From an uncultured Gammaproteobacteria bacterium (GTDB taxonomy: Bacteria; Pseudomonadota; Gammaproteobacteria; JACCXJ01): DNA of 64,000 bases. The stretch lies in assembly GCA_963764725.1 (NCBI GenBank), contig CAVXTM010000016.1, positions 277,598-341,597 of the forward strand, read 5' to 3'. Every line of letters starts with the position of its first letter. Positions within the stretch are counted from its first letter, which is position 1. The translations under genes and the position numbers were made by a program. The notes below the pieces were generated by a model. The model was given only the letters and a program-made list of their open reading frames with translations, was not told the DNA's origin and ran no database searches. Positions 2,136 through 54,628 of the stretch are shown one piece after another.

Positions 2136-2525
2136 ATGACAAGAACGCACGAAAAAGTAAGTCACTCACCTGAAAGTGAGCGCCTTGAATACACAGCAGC
2201 TTCCGCTGCGCAGGGTATCGAGCGGGCTCTCAGTTTTCTCGAAGGCCGCTGGAAACTGCTGATCCTTTTTCATCTCTTCGGCGGCAAAGTTCTGCGGTTC
2301 TCAGACTTGGAACGCGCGATTCCGGCGATCTCTCAAAAGATGCTCGCACAGCAGCTTCGCCAGTTGGAAGCCGACGGAATCGTCCAGCGGATAGTCCACA
2401 ACCAAGTGCCGCCAAAGGTGGAATATCACCTCACGACTTGGGGACAATCCCTCTGCCCAGCGCTCGATGCCTTGCTGAAATGGTCAGAGAATCGCGGCCG
2501 CCCTTCTGCGGATGTGGGCGCCTAG
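2136..2525 (+). CDS. HxlR-family winged-helix transcriptional regulator
   Basis: ALSFLEGRWKLLILFHLFGGKVLRFSDLERAIPAISQKMLAQQLRQLEADGIVQR..VPPKVEYHLT is the HxlR signature. Divergently placed to the NTF2-like/SDR pair. Confidence 0.8.
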   Translation: MTRTHEKVSHSPESERLEYTAASAAQGIERALSFLEGRWKLLILFHLFGGKVLRFSDLERAIPAISQKMLAQQLRQLEADGIVQRIVHNQVPPKVEYHLTTWGQSLCPALDALLKWSENRGRPSADVGA

Positions 2526-2622
2526 CTCAAGGTGGAACGGACGGGCAAGAGCAGCCCGCCGTTCACCACAACGTTAGGCAGCAACCGGGAGCTAGCATCT
2601 AGAATGGGACGAGGAAAACTAC

Positions 2623-3858
2623 TTGTTTGCCGAAGGTGACCTGGACGCGACGCTGCGAGCCCACCAAGGCACCATTGGTGCAAAGATTGATGCGATTCCT
2701 CGCGATCAGTTCATGAATGCACAACCTGAAGAGATCACCGACCATATCCTGTCTGCGATGACGGTTGATCCGTTGGTGATCTACGAGGATCGCGCGGAGA
2801 TGGATCAGCGTGAAACGAAGATTGACGTTAGCGGATGGCGCGACAGAAATCCGTTCGGCGACCGTGGGCCGATCCACGTCGCTGGCGTCGCAGTATCTGT
2901 GTCGATCCCTTTCACTGGTGACTCGTCCTTGTGGAAGCTAAGGCCGAATCAGCGGCAGTCAGTTTTTCCGCGCGCCACAATTGTTAGTTCGCGTGGAGAG
3001 AATGCTGGACATGTCCGCATTGACATGGCGCAACCAACTGACGAGGCGCCAGACCGATTCAAAGCACGCTTAGATGAAGAGGTGAAGACCATCCGTTTCT
3101 ACGTTCAGGCGCAAAAACAGCAAATTGAAGGGTTCAACGCCGGGCTTCGCGCACAAGTTCTTGCCGCAGTTGGAGCAAGGCGAGACCGGATAAAGAAACA
3201 CGAAGGTTTACAGGACATCATGGGCATCCCCTTGAAGCGCAAGGAGGGGGTGCCAGCGCTCGCGCCCGTGAAGATTGCCAGGAAGCTTGTCCGTCCGTTG
3301 CCACCGCCCCCCAAGTCCGGATACAAACCGGAGCCTGGGATTACGGAAGAAGACTATTCGCATATCTTGTCGGTGATTCGGCACGAAGGCAGGACTTTCG
3401 AGACAACTCCGAAGACCTATGCCGTTCACGACGAGGAACAGCTTAGAGACATTCTCCTCGCGCATCTGAATGGCCACTATCAAGGTGACGCTACCGGCGA
3501 GGCGTTTCGACGAAGCGGCAAGACGGATATTCGCATCGAGGATGACGCTCGAGCCGCATTCGTAGCTGAGTGCAAGGTATGGAAGGGACCGAAGGAATTG
3601 TCCCAGGCCATCGACCAGCTTCTTGGCTATCTGACTTGGCGCGACTGCAAGGCCGCCATCGTAGTATTCAACAAGCACAACGCGAAGTTCAGCGGGATCA
3701 TCGACGCCGTCCCTGGGGTCTTCGAGGCTCATCCCCGGTTCCAGCGTGTGCGTGCGGCTGAAGGGGCGGGCGAGTGGCAGTTCGACATGACATCTCGTGA
3801 GGATGAAGGCCGACAGGTGCGTGTTCATGTGTTCGTCTTCAATCTCTTCGTGGCGTAG
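2623..3858 (+). CDS. Hypothetical 411-aa protein with a C-terminal PD-(D/E)xK / Mrr-like nuclease signature; possible stand-alone defence gene
   Basis: Long ORF with a TTG start. The C-terminus reads GDATGEAFRRSGKTDIRIEDDARAAFVAECKVWKG (D..x13..E-x-K), and an R-x5-H element (LRDILLAH) lies nearby. The N-terminal roughly 250 aa resemble no family I recognise. GC is lower than the flanks, and a decayed hsdR is immediately upstream. Confidence 0.5.
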   Translation: MFAEGDLDATLRAHQGTIGAKIDAIPRDQFMNAQPEEITDHILSAMTVDPLVIYEDRAEMDQRETKIDVSGWRDRNPFGDRGPIHVAGVAVSVSIPFTGDSSLWKLRPNQRQSVFPRATIVSSRGENAGHVRIDMAQPTDEAPDRFKARLDEEVKTIRFYVQAQKQQIEGFNAGLRAQVLAAVGARRDRIKKHEGLQDIMGIPLKRKEGVPALAPVKIARKLVRPLPPPPKSGYKPEPGITEEDYSHILSVIRHEGRTFETTPKTYAVHDEEQLRDILLAHLNGHYQGDATGEAFRRSGKTDIRIEDDARAAFVAECKVWKGPKELSQAIDQLLGYLTWRDCKAAIVVFNKHNAKFSGIIDAVPGVFEAHPRFQRVRAAEGAGEWQFDMTSREDEGRQVRVHVFVFNLFVA

Positions 3859-4839
3859 CCGCCCAACCCTCCGCTCAACGCGGACGCGCCGCAAGCGGCG
3901 CGCCGGTTAACGGCACGTTAGGCGGCACGGGGGCTTGAAGGCTGCTATCGGCCACCAGACGACCTGAGCCAGCCGCTCGAAGCAGACCTTCAATGGCGCG
4001 TCCCGATGGAATCGGTCACTTCTTGGTGTAGCCGACGTTCACAACAGTTCAAGTCAGACCTGCGGTCTCGGCAGCTCACCACGCTTCACGGCGCCAACGC
4101 CTACGTTTCAAACCGAGGCTGGAGTAGCATTCTTGATTGCGTTATCGACACGTCGAAGATACGATGCCGCCGGTAGATCGACAGCAGACTGGAGGGAGCC
4201 ATGCCGTATATTCACTTGCTCGCCGCCGGGCATGAACTACACGCTAAACCGGCCCTTGCTCGACGGCACGTCGCCGGCGCGCCTGAAGGAAATCGGCGCG
4301 GTAGCCCCTGAGATCAAGGACTACAAGAGCTGGCACACGGTCTGGCTCGGTTTGGCAAAACGCGCAGAACGCGAACAACGGTCGTTGGATGCCGACGAAC
4401 CCCCCGCCTTCACGCCATTTTTTGCGGTTAACCGCAGAAATTTATGCAACTGGAAGGTTTATTAAGGGAATTGTTTCGGTGAAGGGTGGGTGATGTGGTG
4501 GCTATGGGCATCGGGAGAGAGAGAAAGCCAGAGTAGAGGGCGATCGGATCGGGGGGTTGGGTATCGTAATCGGGTTTAGGGAACTGTTAATAATGCCTTT
4601 CAGGGTGGGATTAGGGGTAGCAGGCAAAGGGAGGCCGTGACCCGAAGAAGACACCGGGCGGCAGCGCGGGCGTTTGCAAGTTGAAGGGCTACACAGGGGC
4701 TGGGGATCGTGTCGAGCCGGGTGGTCCGACGTTTGTGGGCATCCATGGGCGGTGGATGCGCCGTGAGCTATGGAAGCGGAGTCGTCTCCACAGGCCTGGC
4801 AGGCCGGCTGCGGCCAAGGGGATAGCTTGAGGAGAGGCA

Positions 4840-5310
4840 ATGGTTACACACTTCGACCACATCACGATTGTTGTCCGCGACCTCGACGCGGCCAAACGGT
4901 TCTTCGGCCTGCTCGGGTTTGAACACGACCGCTCGGTCGTCATCTCGGGCGATGTCTTTTCCGAATACATGGGGATACCCGGCATCGAGGCCGAACACGT
5001 GACACTGGTGCTGACGGGTGCGGTGCTGCGCGCCGAGGTTCAATTGCTGGCGTACCGGGCGCCGGACCCAGAGCCCAGCCCGCACATCGAGCACTTGAAC
5101 ACGGTCGGGTTCAACCACGTGTGCTTCGCGGTCGAGGACCTAGACGGCGAATTGGGTCGGTTGCGAGCGGCGGGGATCGAGACGCGAAACGACGTGCTCA
5201 ACTTTCACGGCCGCAAACTGGTGTTTCTGCGCGGTCCGGAAGGGATCACAGTGGAGCTTTCGGAACGCTATGACGCAGCGTCTGTTGACTCCGGGACGCC
5301 GCCGAAGTAA
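4840..5310 (+). CDS. VOC / glyoxalase-bleomycin-resistance family protein
   Basis: MVTHFDHITIVVRDLDAAKRFFGLLGFEH...FNHVCFAVEDLDGE..; RBS GGAGAGG precedes the ATG. Confidence 0.8.
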   Translation: MVTHFDHITIVVRDLDAAKRFFGLLGFEHDRSVVISGDVFSEYMGIPGIEAEHVTLVLTGAVLRAEVQLLAYRAPDPEPSPHIEHLNTVGFNHVCFAVEDLDGELGRLRAAGIETRNDVLNFHGRKLVFLRGPEGITVELSERYDAASVDSGTPPK

Positions 5311-5413
5311 CGCATGCACCGGAGCCCGCGCAGCTCTGTTCTTGCGTCCCCCGGTTGGTGCCGTGCGCGGGGATGCTGTGTTCCGAAGAAGCCAACAGAC
5401 ACAGGCAATTTAT

Positions 5414-5971
5414 ATGACAGAATCTCCTCCTGGTGGAACGACCAACAGGACCAATCAACGACTGGCATTCATTTTCTCCAGATGGCTATAAGGCTCGCTG
5501 CCAACAACGACAACGCCCTCGACGTTGGTTGTGGAAGTGGCGGCAGGATAGTCGCTACGCTGCTCGATGCAAGTTACAGGAATCGATGTCTCTGAAGCAA
5601 TGCTTAAGTATGCAAGAACGCGCCATCCAGATTCGGATTTTATACATGCTGACATCTGCGAATGGAAACCTCAGGAGCAGTACGATGCGATAATAGCTCG
5701 GGATAGTATCTTTCACGTACCTTACTCTGAACAACGCAGAGTTATCGGGAAACTGTGTGATGCTCTCGCAAACGGTGGGATAATTCTGTTTACTGCAGGT
5801 GGAGTAGATGGTGAGATAACTGGACAGATGTGCGGGCAGCATTTCTACTACAGCTCATTGGCATAAGAAAAATACTTGAGGATAATGAAAGAGAATGGGT
5901 GTAAGTGCATTCTCATGGAGCGGGATCAACATCCAGAAGAGCATGTGGTCTTTATCGGCGCAAAGGGCTAA
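5414..5971 (+). pseudogene. Class I SAM-dependent methyltransferase, low GC, disrupted by two frameshifts and an in-frame TAA
   Basis: Motif I LDVGCGSGG appears in frame 1 (5400-5575). The continuation VTGIDVSEAMLKYAR...GGIILFTAGG is in frame 2, then TAA at 5864-5866, then an in-frame tail EKYLRIMKENGCKCILMERDQHPEEHVVFIGAKG*. Local GC is about 48% against about 64% in the flanks. Confidence 0.6.
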
Positions 5972-6025
5972 CAATCACATTCACCGGAGGGGCGTTAGAC
6001 GGAGCGAAGAACGAGGACTTGATCC

Positions 6026-6772
6026 ATGAGTACCGTGAACGAACTCTGGCCGAAGGCTGTCGAGGACGGGTTGATCCCGACCGACAACGCGATGGGCATC
6101 ATGACCGAGGAACCCTCACCCGCGGCCCAGGCGTTCATCGAACTGGCGGCCAGCGCCGGCCGGCCGCTGCTGGAGATCGGTGCGGCCTACGGCAACGCCA
6201 CACTGCCCGCGCTGCGCGCCGGTGGCACGGTGATCGCGAACGACCTTTCGGCCTCGGAACTCGGCGTGTTGGCATCGACCGCGCCAAATGAGGATCGCAA
6301 GCGGCTCGTGCTGATGCCGGCGCGGTTTCCCGATCAAATTCGCCTCGGCGACGGCAGCTTGAGTGGAATGCTTGCCGCGCAAGTACTGCATTTCTTCGAT
6401 GGACCGACGGTCGACCTGGCCTTCCACAGCGCCCTTCGCTGGCTCGAGCCGGGCGGGGCCTTGTACGTGGTCGTGATGACACCCAGCCTGAGCTTCTACA
6501 GCCAGTTCCGGCCGGAGTATGAGAAGCGAGCCCGCCGTGGCGAACGCTGGCCGGGAATTTTCGATCCTCGCACCGTCGCCACGCCGGATTGGAAGGAGAG
6601 ACTCCCGCCGATGGTGCATCTCTTTGAGAAAGAGGTGCTGCGGCGTTGCGCGGAGGAGGCCGGCTTCACCGTGGAGACCTTGAAATACTTCTGCTTCCGC
6701 CATTTTCCAGCGAAGCACCGCACCGACGGTCACGAGTTCCTTACGCTCACCGCTCGGAAACCTGTTGCTTAG
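6026..6772 (+). CDS. Class I SAM-dependent methyltransferase
   Basis: 248 aa; LEIGAAYGNATLPAL (motif I-like) ...LEPGGALYVVV (motif post-II); GC typical of the host. Confidence 0.75.
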   Translation: MSTVNELWPKAVEDGLIPTDNAMGIMTEEPSPAAQAFIELAASAGRPLLEIGAAYGNATLPALRAGGTVIANDLSASELGVLASTAPNEDRKRLVLMPARFPDQIRLGDGSLSGMLAAQVLHFFDGPTVDLAFHSALRWLEPGGALYVVVMTPSLSFYSQFRPEYEKRARRGERWPGIFDPRTVATPDWKERLPPMVHLFEKEVLRRCAEEAGFTVETLKYFCFRHFPAKHRTDGHEFLTLTARKPVA

Positions 6773-8320
6773 CTTCTACAAACTCTTGTGCAAAAAAGCA
6801 AAGAGTGTATGCGGGGCCACGACCTGAGAAGGCATACAACGTACTCCGGATAGCGAGTGCGGTGATGAGCACACGACGACCGAAGGTAGTGAGGTAGTAC
6901 TTGTAGCGATGTCCAATCTTTTTGATGAGGCCATGGGTGCGCAAGCGTTTCAACCAGTAGGAGGCACGGCCGGTGGAGAGATCCCGGAGATGGGCTCGGA
7001 GATCGGAAGCGCGAAAGCCGCTGATGTTCCACTCCCCGCGGGCGAGGGTGATAAAAAGGCTATGATCTTCACGGAGGAAGAGATTGAAGCCCCGATAGGA
7101 GCGGTCGTTCTCTCGTATGGGTTTAGCCATTTTGTCGATGGCGTGCAGAGCTGCATTGGGGTTATCGATGCTGGCCATGAAGCTGAGATAGCGTTCAGTG
7201 GCAGCATGCACCAGCTCTCGCAGATCGGGGAGGCATAGATGTTTTTTCGCAGGGGTGCGAGTTCGAATTGCTTGCGCCCATTGCGTTGTTCCACGAAGCG
7301 GTGGTGTTTGAAGAAGGAGACATCGTTGGCGGTGCATTCCACCCGAGCCATGAGACTGAATTTATCGTAGAGCTTGAGGCTCGCTGGCCCCATATGGTGG
7401 CGGATGCGTGTACCCTGAATGCGGGTGTGAAAATCGTTACCGGCCTCCCCGCTGAAGGCCGAGGTGAGTTTGCGTCCCAAGAAGGTGGCGACGTGTTCTG
7501 CCTTGAGGGCATGCACGGCGGTACGCACGATGGCTTGATAGAGGGGTTGGAAATCGGCTTGGCGGTGGAAGATGACATCGGTCGAGAACTCCACCTGCAT
7601 GAAGCTCCAGTGGTAAGCACTGTGAAAGTGACCCACGATGGGGCAGAAGTGCTTGGCCCATTTATCCAGACGACGATGCAAGCCTTTGGGATCGAGGCTA
7701 TCGGCAAGCGACTGAGCACGGCGGGGATCGCCGATGGACAAGAAGGCATTATCGGCGCGCTCAAAGGCGATCCCTGCCTTTGCCAGTCGGTGGGCCAACC
7801 AGTGATGGCCGTTCAAGTAGACTTGCAGGCGAAACGGCGCCCAGGTGGGTACTCGGACATAACAGAGCCCGAAGATCTCATCGATGAAATAGAAGTAATA
7901 ATGCAAACACTTGCCCGGGGTAGACTTCAAACGGGTCGTATGCTGAAGCTTGTCATGCCAGGGGCGATACGAAGGACAGGCCTCCATCGCCGAGAAGATA
8001 TGCACCAGCCCCGGGTGCTCACCGCGCAAAGCCAAAATCGCTTTGATCCGTTCTTCTTTGCGAAACGCCTTGTAATGGCGGATGAACTCGATTTCCAAAC
8101 AAGCCTCAGCGGCCAGCCCCTCGGCATGGGTCCGAAGCGCCTCGCGCAGCGGTTCCGCCCAGCGGGGGTAGTCAAACAGACGCATACCCCGGACACCCAA
8201 ATACCGGGCCATGGCCTCGGCATGGGCGATCTCCGGAAGCGTGCCAGTGATCACGATGCGGTCAAAGCAACAAAGCACCGCGGCGATCTTCTCTTGATGG
8301 CGTTCGACAAAGGGATTCAT
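6747..8320 (-). mobile_element. Transposase-like gene of a family I do not recognise, split by a frameshift near 7240 into 456-aa and 196-aa ORFs
   Basis: The N-terminal ORF begins MNPFVERHQEKIAAV.... The C-terminal ORF carries a winged-helix-like YWLKRLRTHGLIKKIGHRYKYYLTTFGRR. The pair is bracketed by imperfect 19-bp direct repeats (6770-6788 and 8398-8416). Confidence 0.35.
6770..6788. repeat. Left 19-bp direct repeat TAGCTTCTACAAACTCTTG flanking the transposase-like element; overlaps the methyltransferase stop codon
   Basis: 17/19 identity with 8398-8416 (TAGGTTCTACAAACGCTTG), same orientation. Confidence 0.5.
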
Positions 8321-48960: not shown

Positions 48961-50067
48961 TCAGAGCTTTGATCCTGCTCGGGGCACCCCGGCGGCCTGC
49001 CGGGCAAGGGCCCAGGCGACGTGCTCGCGGACCAATTCCGAGGGATGCGCGCGCCTTTGCTCCAGGGCCGCGACAACCTCGGGTGAGGCGGGCGCGTTTC
49101 CCAAGGCCACGGCGATATTGCGTAGCCACCCTTCGTAACCGATGCGCCGAATCGCGGAACCTTCAGTGTTTTTCAGAAACACCTCCTCGGTCCAATTAAA
49201 CAGAGCAATGAGATCGGACGCATCCAATCCATGGCGAGGTTTGAAATCGGTCTCCCGGCTCAAGTGCGCGAAGCGGTTCCAAGGGCAGACCAGTTGGCAG
49301 TCGTCGCAACCGAAGATGCGGTTGCCGATCAAGGGCCGCAGCGGTTCCGGGATCGAACCGCGAAGCTCGATCGTGAGATACGAAATACAACGCCGAGCAT
49401 CGAGCCGATAAGGCCCGAGGATCGCTCGGGTAGGACAGATTTCGATACACGCGCTGCAGCGGCCGCAATGGTTCGCAGCGTGAGGCGGATCGGTCGGCAG
49501 CGGCAGATCGGTATAGATCTCACCCAAAAAAAACCAGGAACCCGCCTGGCGATGAATCAGGTTCGTGTGCTTGCCGATCCAGCCAAGACCGCCGTTGCGC
49601 GCCAAGGCCTTCTCCAGAACCGGGGCGCTGTCGGAGAACACGCGATAGCCGTGGCGCCCGGCGCGCGCGCCGATGCGATCGGCCATGCGCCGCAGCCGTT
49701 GCCGGAGCACTCGATGGTAATCACGGCCGAGGGCATAGCGGGCGATATAGCCTAAGCGGGGGTTGTCGAGTACGGCTTGCGCTGAAGCGGCGCCGGACGG
49801 GAGATAGTCCAGGCGTGCCGAGATCACTCGCAGTGTCCCCGGCACCAACTCATCCGGGCGGCTTCTTTTCGTGCCGTGCCGTGCCATGTAGCGCATCTCG
49901 CCGTGATAACCCGCGGCGAGCCAGTCGCGAAGGCGGTGCTCGTCGTCGCCGAGATCGATCCCGGCAATGCCGATCTGCTGAAAACCGAGATCTCGGCCCC
50001 ACGCTTTGATTTCCGTTGCTAAGCGAGCGTAGTTCAAGGCATTAGCCGTTGCCGAATAGGCGCTCAA
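48961..50067 (-). CDS. queG: Epoxyqueuosine reductase
   Basis: ...CGRCSACIEICPTRA...GCDDCQLVCPWN... (two 4Fe-4S motifs) and a C-terminal HEAT-like region. The start is assigned to TTG (MSAYSATANALNYARL...). Confidence 0.85.
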   Translation of the reverse strand: MSAYSATANALNYARLATEIKAWGRDLGFQQIGIAGIDLGDDEHRLRDWLAAGYHGEMRYMARHGTKRSRPDELVPGTLRVISARLDYLPSGAASAQAVLDNPRLGYIARYALGRDYHRVLRQRLRRMADRIGARAGRHGYRVFSDSAPVLEKALARNGGLGWIGKHTNLIHRQAGSWFFLGEIYTDLPLPTDPPHAANHCGRCSACIEICPTRAILGPYRLDARRCISYLTIELRGSIPEPLRPLIGNRIFGCDDCQLVCPWNRFAHLSRETDFKPRHGLDASDLIALFNWTEEVFLKNTEGSAIRRIGYEGWLRNIAVALGNAPASPEVVAALEQRRAHPSELVREHVAWALARQAAGVPRAGSKL

Positions 50068-50232
50068 ACCGCTCCCGCGTCTCCCTGCTCGCGAAGCGCT
50101 CCGTGAATTTCTTACCGCTCTTGCGCAGTTCGTGCAGGGTTGCGCCGGGCGCGCCCTCCCCCGCATGGCGTCCCCCTGCCAGCGCCTTACGATAGCGTTT
50201 GCGGATGACGCGGCTCGCGAGCGTCATCATGG

Positions 50233-51063
50233 CTAAAATCCGCGCGCTTCGCGGATGCACTCATAGGCGGCGCGGATCTCGCGGGTTTTTTGCGTCGCGA
50301 GCTTGATCATCTCCTCCGGCAGCCCCTTCGCCACAAGCTTATCCGGGTGGTGTTGGCTCATGAGCCGGCGATAGGCTTTCTTGACTTCAGCGTTGGTCGC
50401 GGTCGCCGTCAGGTTCAGGATCGCGAAGGCATCCTCCACGCCATACTCTTCCCGCGCTTCCCGCGGGGCCTCGGCGCGCGAACGCCACCTGTGGCCGGCT
50501 TCCGCGCGCGCCATCGCTTCGAGACGCTGGTACTCCAGGCGCGAGAACCCGAGCCGGTCGGACACATACAATAGGAGCCGGTGCTCGGCGGGATCGAGCT
50601 GAGCGTCGGCCCATGCCGCCGCGAGCTGGATCTCGAGGAACATACGCATGAGGCTGTGCCGGTTGCGGATTTCGTGGCGAAGCTGCGCCAAAACCGCATC
50701 CAGGGGGAAGTCCTGGGACTTGCCTTCACTGAATAAGTGCATCGCAGTCCGCATCTGATCCGGGGCCAGATCCATCCGCCCCATCACGCTGCGCGCCAGG
50801 TTGATCTCGCGATCCGTGACCCGTCCGTCGGCCTTGCAGATATGTCCCATCACGGCGAAGGTCGCAGTATAGAAGGCCGTCTGGACGCTCTCGCGGGCGT
50901 CGGGACCGTCGGGACGCCTGCCCTCGAAGGGCCGCGCGAGGCCTTCATCCACGTTGTGCCCGAGCGCCGCCCCGAGCATGGCCCCAAGGGGCCCCCCCAG
51001 CATGTAGCCGAAGGCGCCGCCGATTATCTTGCCCCACCATGCCATAGCGCCCCATTGTACCAA
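50233..51063 (-). CDS. djlA: Co-chaperone DjlA (TerB-like domain plus C-terminal J domain)
   Basis: N-terminal TM segment; C-terminal DAFAILNLTATATNAEVKKAYRRLMSQHHPDK. Confidence 0.85.
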   Translation of the reverse strand: MVQWGAMAWWGKIIGGAFGYMLGGPLGAMLGAALGHNVDEGLARPFEGRRPDGPDARESVQTAFYTATFAVMGHICKADGRVTDREINLARSVMGRMDLAPDQMRTAMHLFSEGKSQDFPLDAVLAQLRHEIRNRHSLMRMFLEIQLAAAWADAQLDPAEHRLLLYVSDRLGFSRLEYQRLEAMARAEAGHRWRSRAEAPREAREEYGVEDAFAILNLTATATNAEVKKAYRRLMSQHHPDKLVAKGLPEEMIKLATQKTREIRAAYECIREARGF

Positions 51064-51174: not shown

Positions 51175-52269
51175 ATGATCAACTTCATTCAAGACTGGTA
51201 TCGCAGGAATTTCGCCGATCCCCAGGCGATGCTGCTGGCAGTGTTCATGGCCGTGACTTTCAGCGTCATTCTCGTCATGGGCGACATGTTGGCGCCGTTC
51301 TTGGCCGCGATCATTATCGCCTACCTCTTGGAAGGGCCGGTGCAGTATCTGCAAAAGGCGTCGGGCTCGCGCAGCATCGCTGTCGTGGTGGTGTTTCTCC
51401 TGTTCATGGCCGTCCTGCTGTTCCTGGTCTTGGGGCTCATTCCTCTCCTCTACCGCCAGGTCGCGGAATTTTTTCAGGAGCTTCCAAATCTCATCAACGA
51501 CGGGCGCACGACCTTGCTGACCTTGCCCGAGTCCTATCCGGCTTTCGTATCCGTCGAGCACGTGGAAGAGCTGATGACGATGATGCGGCGGAGCATCGCA
51601 GCGTTCGGTGAAAACGTTTTGTCCGTCTCCCTGGCGTCCATCCCCACCCTCATCACCGCCCTGGTGTATTTGATCGTGGGTCCTCTGCTCCTGTTCTTCT
51701 TCCTCAAGGACAAAGCTCTCATTCTCGGCTGGGCGCGGGATTTCTTGCCGCACGATCGCAGGCTCTTGCTCAAGGTCTGGCGGGAGATGGATGATCAGAT
51801 CGGCAATTACGTGCGCGGCAAGATCAACGAGATCCTGATCGTCGGTGTCGTCACCTACGTCATCTTCGCGCTCATGGGCTTGTCGTACGCCGCGCTTCTC
51901 GCGGTGCTTGTCGGGGTATCGGTGATCATCCCGTACATCGGCGCCGTGGCGGTGACCTTTCCGGTGGCCTTCGCCGGCTACGGCCAGTGGGGCTGGGGAC
52001 CGGATTTCGCCTGGTTCATGGTCGCCTATGCCGTCATCCAGGGCTTGGACGGCAACCTGCTCGTCCCACTGTTATTCTCGGAAGCCGTGAATCTCCATCC
52101 GGTGGCGATCATCCTTGCCGTGCTGGTGTTCGGCGGGTTCTGGGGGTTTTGGGGGGTGTTCTTCGCGATCCCGCTCGCGACCTTGGTCAAGGCATTGCTC
52201 AATGCCTGGCCGAAAACTCCGGGCGAGGCGCCCGTTCAACTCCCGGAAATGCGCCAGCAAGCGCGATAG
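51175..52269 (+). CDS. AI-2E family transporter (second copy)
   Basis: 364 aa, polytopic; MINFIQDWYRRNFADPQAMLLAVFMAV... Confidence 0.8.
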   Translation: MINFIQDWYRRNFADPQAMLLAVFMAVTFSVILVMGDMLAPFLAAIIIAYLLEGPVQYLQKASGSRSIAVVVVFLLFMAVLLFLVLGLIPLLYRQVAEFFQELPNLINDGRTTLLTLPESYPAFVSVEHVEELMTMMRRSIAAFGENVLSVSLASIPTLITALVYLIVGPLLLFFFLKDKALILGWARDFLPHDRRLLLKVWREMDDQIGNYVRGKINEILIVGVVTYVIFALMGLSYAALLAVLVGVSVIIPYIGAVAVTFPVAFAGYGQWGWGPDFAWFMVAYAVIQGLDGNLLVPLLFSEAVNLHPVAIILAVLVFGGFWGFWGVFFAIPLATLVKALLNAWPKTPGEAPVQLPEMRQQAR

Positions 52270-52389
52270 CTGTTCCTGAGGCTGCAACCCGAAATCTTGC
52301 ATAATGCGTTCGATTTGTCCGCCTGCGGCCCAATTGCAGCCGGCACGTCGCCCGCACACGCTGCGGACGACGTCCTCAATCTTCAAGAC

Positions 52390-52545
52390 TTAAAGCTGCG
52401 GCTTCTCCGCACCGCTTCCCTTCATAATGATCTTCTTCGCCGTCTCGAACCAAGAATCTATCGTGGTTACCATCGGCATGAGCTTGGCGTAAAATTTAGC
52501 GCCTAGGTAGAGACCTAGGACGATACCTAGAATCAACCAGACCAT
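52390..52545 (-). CDS. Candidate 51-aa single-TM peptide in a low-GC insert (below the ORF-track length cut-off)
   Basis: GGAGG 6 nt upstream of the ATG at 52543-52545; MVWLILGIVLGLYLGAKFYAKLMPMVTTIDSWFETAKKIIMKGSGAEKPQL*. Confidence 0.3.
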   Translation of the reverse strand: MVWLILGIVLGLYLGAKFYAKLMPMVTTIDSWFETAKKIIMKGSGAEKPQL

Positions 52546-52568
52546 AGAACACCTCCTCTAAATTATCT

Positions 52569-52814
52569 TTATAAACAAGCGATCGTGCGTCTATAAATAT
52601 ACCAGCCGGTCATCCCGCTGCACACCTCCTCGTACGCCGGTTTCGGCGTGGAACCGCCGGCGTAACCCACCGCCGTCGAGTAGACGCCGCTAGTTTGCCA
52701 GTATTTTCGTTCCGCGCCCCAAAAGCATCCGAGTCCGAACAAAGCCCGCTCCAACCCCGCCGGAAAAGGTGGTTCTAACCGGCGTCCATTCACGAAATGA
52801 GTGGCCACCACCAC
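52569..52814 (-). pseudogene. msrA: Peptide methionine sulfoxide reductase MsrA, N-terminal about 70 aa only, truncated at about 52615 by low-GC DNA
   Basis: [47 protein letters not shown], then nonsense and AT-rich sequence. Confidence 0.6.
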
Positions 52815-52954
52815 CCGCGCCGCACGCCCTACAACACCTCGTGGGGGATGCTCGTGTGCCTGCCGAACATGCCCTACCCCTTGAGTAAATTCGCCTTTAA
52901 TGCGTGTCTCATTATAATTGGCCGCTTTTAATCAGTCTCGGGAATTGCTGCGCC

Positions 52955-54628
52955 ATGCCTCAATACGTTTATACCATGAATCGCGTCGGCAAGGTGGTTC
53001 CGCACAAGCGGGTGATTCTACGCGATATCTCGTTATGTTTCTTCCCGGGGGCCAAAATCGGTGTGCTGGGACTCAACGGGGCCGGAAAATCGTCCTTATT
53101 GCGCATCATGGCCGGTATGGATAAGGACTATGACGGGGAAGCGATCCCGCAACCGGGGATCGCCATCGGTTTCCTTTCCCAGGAACCGCGGCTCGATCCC
53201 GGCAAGGACGTGCGCGGCAATGTGGAAGAGGCCATTGCGGGGAGCAAAGCGCTCCTCGACCGTTTCAATGCAATCTCGATGCGTTTCGCCGACCCGATGA
53301 GCGATGAGGAGATGAACCGGCTGCTCGAGGAGCAGGCCACACTGCAAGAGGCGATCGACACGGCCGGCGCATGGGAGCTCGAACGCACACTTGAGATCGC
53401 CGCCGATGCGCTCAGGCTGCCGTCTTGGGACGCCGATGTGAGTCAGCTCTCCGGCGGGGAACGGCGCCGCGTCGCGCTTTGCCGGCTGCTGCTCTCACAG
53501 CCCGACATGCTGCTCCTGGATGAGCCCACCAACCATCTGGACGCAGAGTCCGTGGCCTGGCTCGAACGCTACCTTGCCGGCTATCCGGGAACGGTGATCG
53601 CGGTGACCCATGACCGTTACTTTCTGGACAATGTCGCCGGTTGGATCTTGGAGCTCGACCGGGGTTATGGGATCCCCTGGCAAGGGAACTATTCCTCGTG
53701 GCTGGAACAGAAACAGCAGCGGCTCGAACGCGAAGAGAAACAAGCGGAGGGCCGCCGCAAGGCCATGCTGCTCGAGCTAGAATGGGTGCGGACTAACCCA
53801 AAAGGACGGCACGCGAAAAGCAAGGCGCGGCTGCAACGCTTTCAGGAGCTTGCCTCACAGGAGTATCAGCACCGCAACGAGACCAACGAGATCTATATCC
53901 CGCCGGGTCCACGGCTCGGGGATTTAGTGATCGAGGTCTCGCATTTGCGCAAGGCCTACGGGGATCGGCTGCTCATCGATGATCTGAGCTTTAAATTGCC
54001 CCCCGGAGGTATCGTCGGCGTTATCGGCCCGAATGGGGCCGGCAAGACGACCTTATTTCGGATGCTGACCGGGCAGGAAGCGCTCGATGCGGGCGAGATC
54101 CGCACAGGTGAGTCCGTGGTGCTCGCCTGTGTCGACCAGAGCCGCGATGCGTTGGCTGCCGAAAAAACCGTGTGGGAGGAGATCTCCGATGGACAGGACC
54201 TCCTACACGTGGGTAGCTACGAATGTCAGTCGCGATCGTACGTGGCCAGGTTCAATTTCAAGGGGGCGGATCAGCAAAAGCGGGTAGGAACGCTCTCCGG
54301 GGGCGAACGCAATCGCGTCCATCTCGCCAAAGTCCTGCGCCAGGGCGCGAATGTGTTACTCCTCGATGAACCGACCAACGACCTCGATGTCGAGACGCTC
54401 CGGGCCTTAGAGCAGGCGTTGCTGAATTTTCCGGGCTGCGCGGTGGTGATCTCGCACGATCGTTGGTTCTTGGACCGCGTGGCCACGCATATCCTGGCTT
54501 TCGAGGGCGACAGCCAGGTAATGTGGTTTGAAGGCAACTATGCCGGTTATGAAGCGGACCGGCATCGCCGGCTCGGCGGCGATGCGGATCAGCCCCATCG
54601 CGTCCATTATAAACCTCTCAAAGCGTAG
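52955..54628 (+). CDS. ettA: Energy-dependent translational throttle protein EttA (ABC-F)
   Basis: [16 protein letters not shown]...; two ABC cassettes. Confidence 0.95.

Follow-up and report, generated by a model that had tools for sequence, protein, structure and literature searches.

Decay of msrA by deletion and retention of a neighbouring gene for a probable small membrane protein in USC-gamma methanotrophs

The window analysed here, a 64-kb stretch (64,000 nucleotides) of contig CAVXTM010000016.1 from an uncultured gammaproteobacterium, contains between the genes perM and ettA a remnant of msrA followed by a small open reading frame (ORF) of 51 codons. Comparison with related loci of USC-gamma (upland soil cluster gamma) methanotrophs makes it close to certain that the window msrA is a multiply damaged pseudogene, made by deletion and not by insertion, and likely that the small ORF is a genuine gene for a small membrane protein. 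The combined reading, in which a deletion pseudogene stands beside a native small gene for a non-toxic accessory membrane protein that acts independently of MsrA, is considered fairly probable. Two short minus-strand ORFs occupy the perM–ettA interval, at 52814..52569 (81 amino acids) and 52545..52390 (51 amino acids), with a gap of 23 nt from the end of the first to the ATG of the second at 52545. The elements quoted in an initial annotation of this DNA (the MsrA N-terminus, the AT-rich stretch, GGAGG-N6-ATG and the 51-codon ORF) are all present on that strand.

Deletion decay of msrA

The 81-residue ORF begins at an internal GTG and holds the catalytic motif GCFWG and the segment EEVCSGMTG, past which it continues for 11 unrelated codons to a stop. 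It matches the Pfam family PMSR (PF01625) at model positions 2–49 of 153 only (E = 1.6e-16), which agrees with the truncation of msrA proposed initially. By DNA alignment, the window is collinear with the intact msrA of relatives up to GGGATGACC and then jumps to GGCTGGTATATTTATAGACGCACGA, with which, in those relatives, the conserved small-ORF leader begins. The blastn high-scoring segment pairs covering positions 2301–4428 and 4935–7340 of the related locus L001 abut at window positions 52606/52607 with a 2-nt GG overlap; approximately 508 bp have been lost relative to L001, comprising msrA codons 92–213 and the spacer between msrA and the small ORF. On its right side the deletion ends exactly at the 5' edge of the conserved leader.

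A further lesion, overlooked in the initial annotation, lies near the msrA 5' end, where a net 10 nt (6 + 1 + 3) are missing and the frame is shifted. The ancestral ATG (52870) consequently reads into a TAG at 52831–52829, a stop at codon 14, and no single open frame running from that ATG covers the full PMSR domain. Compared with MsrA (PF01625), the window gene keeps N-terminal homology worth 92 codons, including GCFWG, but has the frameshift and the early stop and lacks the C-terminal 121 codons. With both a 508-bp 3' deletion and a 5' frameshift leading to an early stop, msrA is almost certainly a dead pseudogene, as judged from its sequence.

The same allele is seen outside this assembly. 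The exact 51-residue protein is also encoded on contigs assembled independently from the reads of two further runs (ERR12040024 and ERR15459712), and in both the gap from ettA to the small ORF is 409 nt and the gap from the small ORF to perM is 120 nt, as in the window. Identical spacers indicate the same deletion allele, and these gene coordinates from two further read-set assemblies make it improbable that the truncation is an assembly artefact, the possibility that had been named against it.

The truncation had been attributed to a low-GC insert, and the composition of the segment is what a mobile or foreign element landing in msrA could produce: GC content falls to 0.40–0.50 in 60-nt windows from ~52380 to 52590, compared with 0.604 for the whole window, and third-position GC content (GC3) is 0.65 in the small ORF versus 0.73–0.82 in neighbouring genes. 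In relatives, however, the same AT-rich cassette follows an intact msrA as native sequence, and at the window junction ~508 bp are missing. The segment is single-copy, no inverted or direct repeats flank it, and no relatives of the small ORF were found among viral contigs and plasmids. Truncation by an insert is therefore extremely improbable. Insertion sequences (IS), miniature inverted-repeat transposable elements and foreign cassettes were considered as specific candidates and rejected, there being no border repeats and the relatives with intact msrA carrying the cassette at the same site.

Conservation of the small ORF

Related loci were collected through clusters of the peptide (L001–L014) and through perM together with a peptide profile (L016–L021 and L103–L108). 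Homologues of the peptide fall into seven clusters with 84–92% identity, all 51 residues long. In ~20 loci from metagenome-assembled genomes (MAGs) of USC-gamma / wb1-P19 methanotrophs, an intact 213-residue msrA is followed on the same strand, 125–212 nt downstream, by the small ORF; both lie between ettA and perM in L001, L003–L014, L016–L021 and L105–L107. The conserved order is ettA (−), msrA (+), small ORF (+), perM (−) and djlA. There is one copy of the small ORF per locus and one in the window, and a search for paralogues of the peptide, proposed in the initial annotation, returned none. From this synteny, the small ORF is a vertically inherited, native downstream neighbour of msrA.

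The nearest relatives of perM, with 90–98% identity, belong to the MAGs "Chromatiales bacterium USCg_Taylor", "Frasassi PCtopBin12" and "Lehman Caves 20pBin3", which are atmospheric methanotrophs of wb1-P19 / upland soil cluster gamma (bioRxiv 10.1101/2024.08.23.608578). Judged by these relatives, the host of the window is a USC-gamma / wb1-P19 methanotroph. The next perM relatives (at most 67% identity) have no msrA, ettA or small ORF beside perM, and the origin of the msrA–small ORF pair is therefore not polarisable with these outgroup loci.

The small ORF is represented by 15 nucleotide alleles encoding 14 protein variants, all of 51 codons, with no indel and no stop; the lack of conservation that had been put forward as counting against the peptide is not what is found. 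Pooled ratios of nonsynonymous to synonymous polymorphism (pN/pS) are 0.30 for the small ORF, 0.28 for msrA, 0.15 for perM and 0.14 for ettA, with synonymous divergence (dS) of 0.1–0.6 in the small ORF. By part, pN/pS is 0.07 for codons 1–18, which encode the transmembrane (TM) part, and 0.29 for codons 19–51. Variable sites at codon positions 1, 2 and 3 number 12, 13 and 24. Conservation and purifying selection fit a gene for a small single-pass protein.

An exhaustive search of 1.84 billion representative proteins with a profile, followed by a word-indexed search using a broader alignment, added to these homologues only a degraded variant, P0008, and two distant singletons. The 44-residue P0009 (E 2e-9) is encoded convergently with a gene for an HI0933-like flavoprotein and has its own GGAGG and no msrA nearby. 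P0011 (63 residues, E 7e-4) has two helices, the extra one N-terminal, and overlaps by start and stop codons with an uncharacterised 402-residue polytopic membrane protein that has no Pfam match, an operon setting that gives no clue to function. Both share the motif GLxLGxKF/YxxxLMxxVxxV/I-E/D-G/S-W with the small ORF on different DNA, and this conservation at the peptide level is the strongest argument for a protein product. The peptide has no significant match to a known family in Pfam, NCBIfam, PHROGs, PADLOC or PDB sequences. It represents a family that is new and unannotated, in the established class of small bacterial membrane proteins. The expectation that standard annotation would miss the ORF did not hold: several MAG records already call it as a hypothetical protein.

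The TM-coding part of the gene (52502–52530) is a 2.5-copy tandem repeat of 12 nt, CTAGGTATCGTC CTAGGTCTCTAC CTAGG, with units that start with CTAGG. The pattern CTAGG-N7-CTAGG-N7-CTAGG is unique in the window, and the repeat carries 3 of the 50 CTAG sites of the 64 kb, for which 229 would be expected from base composition (~4.6-fold under-representation). Its three Leu codons are all CTA and are invariant over the 15 alleles. The repeat may have originated by tandem duplication or reflect a constraint at the nucleotide level.

Independent loss of the two genes

In every lineage in which msrA has decayed, the leader and Shine–Dalgarno sequence (SD) of the small ORF are intact (Table 1). The closest relatives covering the region, L103 and L104 (ettA 97.5%, perM ~97%), have a left msrA breakpoint within 1 nt of that of the window; this shared breakpoint suggests that a first deletion was common to L103, L104 and the window and was later extended in the window lineage. 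The msrA deletions of L002 and L108 have breakpoints that differ from each other. Independent deletion of msrA thus occurred in no fewer than two lineages besides that of the window, and the differing internal deletions of L002, L103, L104 and L108 point to at least two to three further inactivations in the USC-gamma clade.

The reverse is found in L097–L100, from Antarctic/polar desert soil metagenomes, in which the small ORF has lost 12 nt, one CTAGGTNTCNNC repeat unit of the TM helix, and is frameshifted by a 4-nt CGAT duplication. Retention of the small ORF where msrA is destroyed, and of msrA where the small ORF is broken, means that the two genes are lost independently.

Table 1 Features of the msrA–small ORF locus in the window and state of the two genes in related loci
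Feature	Position	Strand	Description	Basis
perM, AI-2E family transporter	51175..52269	+	Convergent with small ORF; synteny anchor	Pfam PF01594, E = 2.6e-67
ettA-like ABC-F ATPase	52955..54628	+	Divergent from msrA; synteny anchor	Pfam ABC_tran (two) and ABC_tran_Xtn
Small ORF	52390..52545	−	51 codons + TAA; MVWLILGIVLGLYLGAKFYAKLMPMVTTIDSWFETAKKIIMKGSGAEKPQL	
Shine–Dalgarno sequence GGAGG	52552..52556	−	6 nt before small ORF ATG	Read directly
Conserved leader of small ORF	52546..52607	−	AT-rich	Alignments with relatives
Deletion junction	52606..52607	−	2-nt GG microhomology	blastn and DNA alignment
msrA pseudogene remnant	52608..52870	−	From ancestral ATG at 52870; homologous to codons 1–92 of 213-codon gene	
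GC-rich hairpin	52345..52373	unassigned	Stem 12–14 bp; 17 nt past small ORF stop	
Promoter-like match antisense to small ORF	52467..52495	+	TTACCA-17-TAAAAT	
Gene states, window			msrA: 508-bp 3' deletion and 5' frameshift; small ORF intact, 51 codons	
Gene states, L103 and L104	L103 791–1169; L104 1908–2286		msrA: 260-nt internal deletion; small ORF intact, 51 codons	
Gene states, L002	4458–4789		msrA: 310-nt internal out-of-frame deletion; small ORF intact, 51 codons	
Gene states, L108	2041–2358		msrA: 321-nt in-frame deletion, residues 59–167 gone; small ORF intact, 51 codons	
Gene states, L097–L100 (coordinates of broken small ORF)	L097 35–199; L098 2058–2222; L099 1126–1290; L100 1038–1202		msrA: 213 residues in L098 and L099, called at 192 residues in L100; L097 begins at small ORF; small ORF broken	
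Distant homologues of small ORF, other organisms	L095 22–156; L096 242–376; L101 97–288			

Architecture of the small protein

Residues 2–18 (VWLILGIVLGLYLGAKF) are strongly hydrophobic, with a mean Kyte–Doolittle value of 1.98, and contain a glycine zipper, G7xxxG11xxxG15. They are followed by an amphipathic helix at approximately residues 21–42 (hydrophobic moment 0.42), the hydrophobic face of which is formed by L22, M25, V26, I29, W32, F33, A36, I39 and I40, and by a polar tail; the peptide carries a net charge of +3. From the family alignment, AlphaFold2 predicts one helix spanning residues 2–44 with a predicted local distance difference test score of 75. Hydrophobicity and the predicted structure agree with the single N-terminal TM helix of the initial annotation, and the helix and the strong SD also described there are both conserved. 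On the positive-inside rule, K17 and K21 after the TM helix predict a topology with the N terminus out and the C terminus in the cytoplasm. A predicted tryptic peptide of the product is LMPMVTTIDSWFETAK.

In TatA and TatE, a short N-terminal TM helix is directly followed by an amphipathic helix. The small peptide is similar in its TM helix of ~15–17 residues from residue 2, its basic residues and its amphipathic helix, but has no TatA Pfam match at E ≤ 5 and is predicted by AlphaFold2 as one continuous helix; the N-terminal polar residue and F-G hinge of TatA are not evident in it, and the likeness is a resemblance only.

Among bacterial small membrane accessory and regulatory proteins are AcrZ (49 residues), KdpF (29 residues) and MgrB, each defined by an experimentally shown partner protein (review PMC12648545). 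With ~50 residues and a single TM helix the peptide resembles them, and its gene, like theirs, has its own SD, lies beside larger genes and shows clade-limited conservation; it has no sequence homology to them and is likened to them here by architecture alone. Across the compared loci, no co-varying or constantly adjacent membrane-protein gene was singled out, perM being convergent and absent beside P0009.

Expression signals

The sequence GGAGGTG is invariant in all aligned relatives, and the proximal ~45 nt of the leader are near-invariant in all lineages. The invariant SD points to translation of the small ORF. In predicted folds of leader and ORF the SD is partly paired, with probabilities of being unpaired of 0.12–0.42, values that are not decisive. 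No sense-strand sigma-70 consensus promoter for the small ORF was found in the window or in four relatives, and in the stretch from msrA to the small ORF consensus scans detected no terminator and folding no significant structure. With the two genes on the same strand and neither a terminator nor a sigma-70 promoter between them, co-transcription is the simplest model.

The hairpin beyond the small ORF (Table 1) has a folding free energy of −34.8 kcal/mol (z −3.7) and a stem that is conserved in all relatives. It lacks a U-tract and was for that reason not called by the terminator scan; from its position between the convergent small ORF and perM, it is likely to be the terminator of one or both. 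A search of Rfam over the small-ORF region and the whole window gave no family at gathering score; a sub-threshold match to SNORD94 (E 0.53) is not credible.

The spacer between msrA and the small ORF contains in relatives a GC-rich, partly palindromic segment of ~90–140 nt, which some lineages lack or have in shortened form (L001 4796–4940 compared with L009 2417–2480 and L004 4860–4955). Its presence and absence resemble those of repetitive extragenic palindromic elements, and its fold energy is not significant.

Alternative readings of the small ORF

The initial annotation placed the peptide with type I toxins or small membrane-regulator peptides, and the second class is the best available for it. 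As a type I toxin, it would depolarise the membrane, its translation would be checked by an antisense small RNA (sRNA), and addiction would explain why deletions spare it. Its size and shape (below the 60–70 residues of such toxins, with one TM helix and a polar, charged C-terminal part) are those of Hok/Gef, Ldr, TisB, Ibs and ZorO, which are likewise under 60 residues, with one hydrophobic helix, a polar C terminus and a narrow taxonomic range. The glycine zipper could oligomerise into pores, folding predicts partial pairing of the SD, and the ORF is kept in all lineages with decayed msrA. The window and L001 carry a promoter-like site opposite the 5' half of the ORF, in antisense orientation. 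This site, however, is missing from L004, L009 and L014, three of the five lineages scanned, and its −10 element overlaps the variable Tyr19 codon; the window scan found one antisense site where 0.5 were expected, and the match is probably due to chance. Type I toxin loci are expected to be isolated by at least 400 nt upstream and at least 250 nt downstream and/or to be tandemly duplicated (Fozo et al. 2010, PMC2887945), whereas the small ORF is single-copy, without tandem duplicates or paralogues, and is tightly packed, 125–212 nt from msrA (23 nt from the remnant ORF in the window) and ~120 nt from perM. Its stable vertical synteny behind a same-strand housekeeping gene fits an operon, it is similar neither to any known toxin family nor to defence proteins, no Rfam family and, in the five lineages scanned, no conserved promoter for an antisense sRNA was found, and in L097–L100 it is frameshifted without a visible compensating change. 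A type I toxin is consequently unlikely. A broader proposal, that the small ORF rather than msrA is the selectively maintained product of the locus and its new glycine-zipper protein forms a pore- or channel-like assembly, as a chromosomal toxin, a persistence factor or a modulator of methanotroph membrane machinery, is held to be equally unlikely; if true, retention of the small ORF would shape where the recurrent msrA deletions end.

A membrane partner or substrate of MsrA, such as a membrane tether or a sacrificial Met-bearing antioxidant, would account for the constant same-strand place of the ORF right after msrA in ~20 loci with no terminator between them, and for four Met in 51 residues, of which M23 and M41 are invariant. 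Yet the ORF is intact in at least three lineages in which msrA is destroyed, the lineage with a broken ORF has an intact msrA, the homologue P0009 does not lie beside msrA, and the Met enrichment is small; such a partnership is doubtful, if slightly less so than a toxin. It is also possible to read the ORF as no functional protein at all, conserved passively or because its DNA or RNA acts as a leader, as part of a terminator region or as a repeat that binds a protein. The leader and first 54 nt are almost invariant, synonymous sites included, three CTAGG units recur at 12-nt spacing in a pattern unique to the window where CTAG is otherwise under-represented, and one lineage has a frameshift. 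Against this stand the pN/pS of 0.30 over the observed range of dS, the absence of indels and stops from 15 alleles, the invariant SD, and the peptide motif that P0009 and P0011 keep on different DNA, and a non-protein role is rated very unlikely, somewhat below the toxin.

Several observations weigh against the favoured reading of a functional, non-toxic accessory protein. The broken ORF beside an intact msrA in L097–L100 means that the small protein is dispensable in at least some populations. The third-position excess of variable sites is marginal (chi-square p = 0.066), and the first 54 nt are conserved at synonymous sites as well (pS 0.086 versus ~0.17 in neighbouring genes), which could reflect a constraint at the RNA or DNA level. 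Co-transcription with msrA leans on negative results of simple consensus scans in a host with uncharacterised promoters, and the functional class is assigned from architecture only.

Surroundings of the locus

No tRNA or tmRNA genes were found by ARAGORN across the 64-kb window. A second deletion pseudogene lies at most 3 kb from the msrA remnant. In all close relatives, djlA and queG are separated by a gene for a 311-residue CHAD-domain protein; in the window it is reduced to two short fragments by two deletions of ~486 and ~265 bp relative to L001, and its remnant occupies 50045–50230 on the minus strand, between djlA (50233–51063) and queG (48961–~50040).

In several relatives the DNA past the small ORF or perM is rearranged (L015 3475–3648, L003 5489–6460, L097 401–2649 and L002 1–428), and on the contig of the Frasassi MAG the sequence diverges ~55 nt past the perM stop, after which the contig ends. 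An IS110-family transposase takes the place of perM in L003 and is also found near the locus in L002; in L097, DruA and a Tn5-type transposase lie beyond the broken small ORF.

A model for the locus and its implications

In the model proposed here, the ancestral USC-gamma arrangement would have been ettA <- / -> msrA -> small ORF / <- perM, from which msrA decayed while the small ORF was kept. The small ORF would probably be transcribed with msrA from the msrA promoter, and in the window the msrA remnant would serve as its 5' leader. Its product would be a small inner-membrane protein with the N terminus out and the C terminus in, the GxxxGxxxG helix of which may pack against its own copies or against a larger membrane protein, with the conserved amphipathic helix (LMPxVTxIDSW...) predicted to lie on the cytoplasmic face of the membrane. 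Intactness of the small ORF in every lineage with decayed msrA argues for a function independent of MsrA. The best guess for this function is that of a non-toxic subunit, accessory or modulatory, in the functional class to which AcrZ, KdpF and MgrB belong.

The anatomy of the locus is thereby corrected to that of a deletion pseudogene, with no mobile element or foreign cassette. The msrA gene, usually viewed as a core gene of oxidative-damage repair, has been deleted repeatedly in this clade, and its 156-bp neighbour has been preserved. On its own, the finding opens no long-standing question. It defines a family of small membrane proteins for which neither Pfam nor NCBIfam offers a model and which occurs essentially only in uncultured USC-gamma / wb1-P19 methanotrophs, an important atmospheric methane sink, and it supplies a concrete small-protein candidate and a marker of gene decay for USC-gamma genomes.

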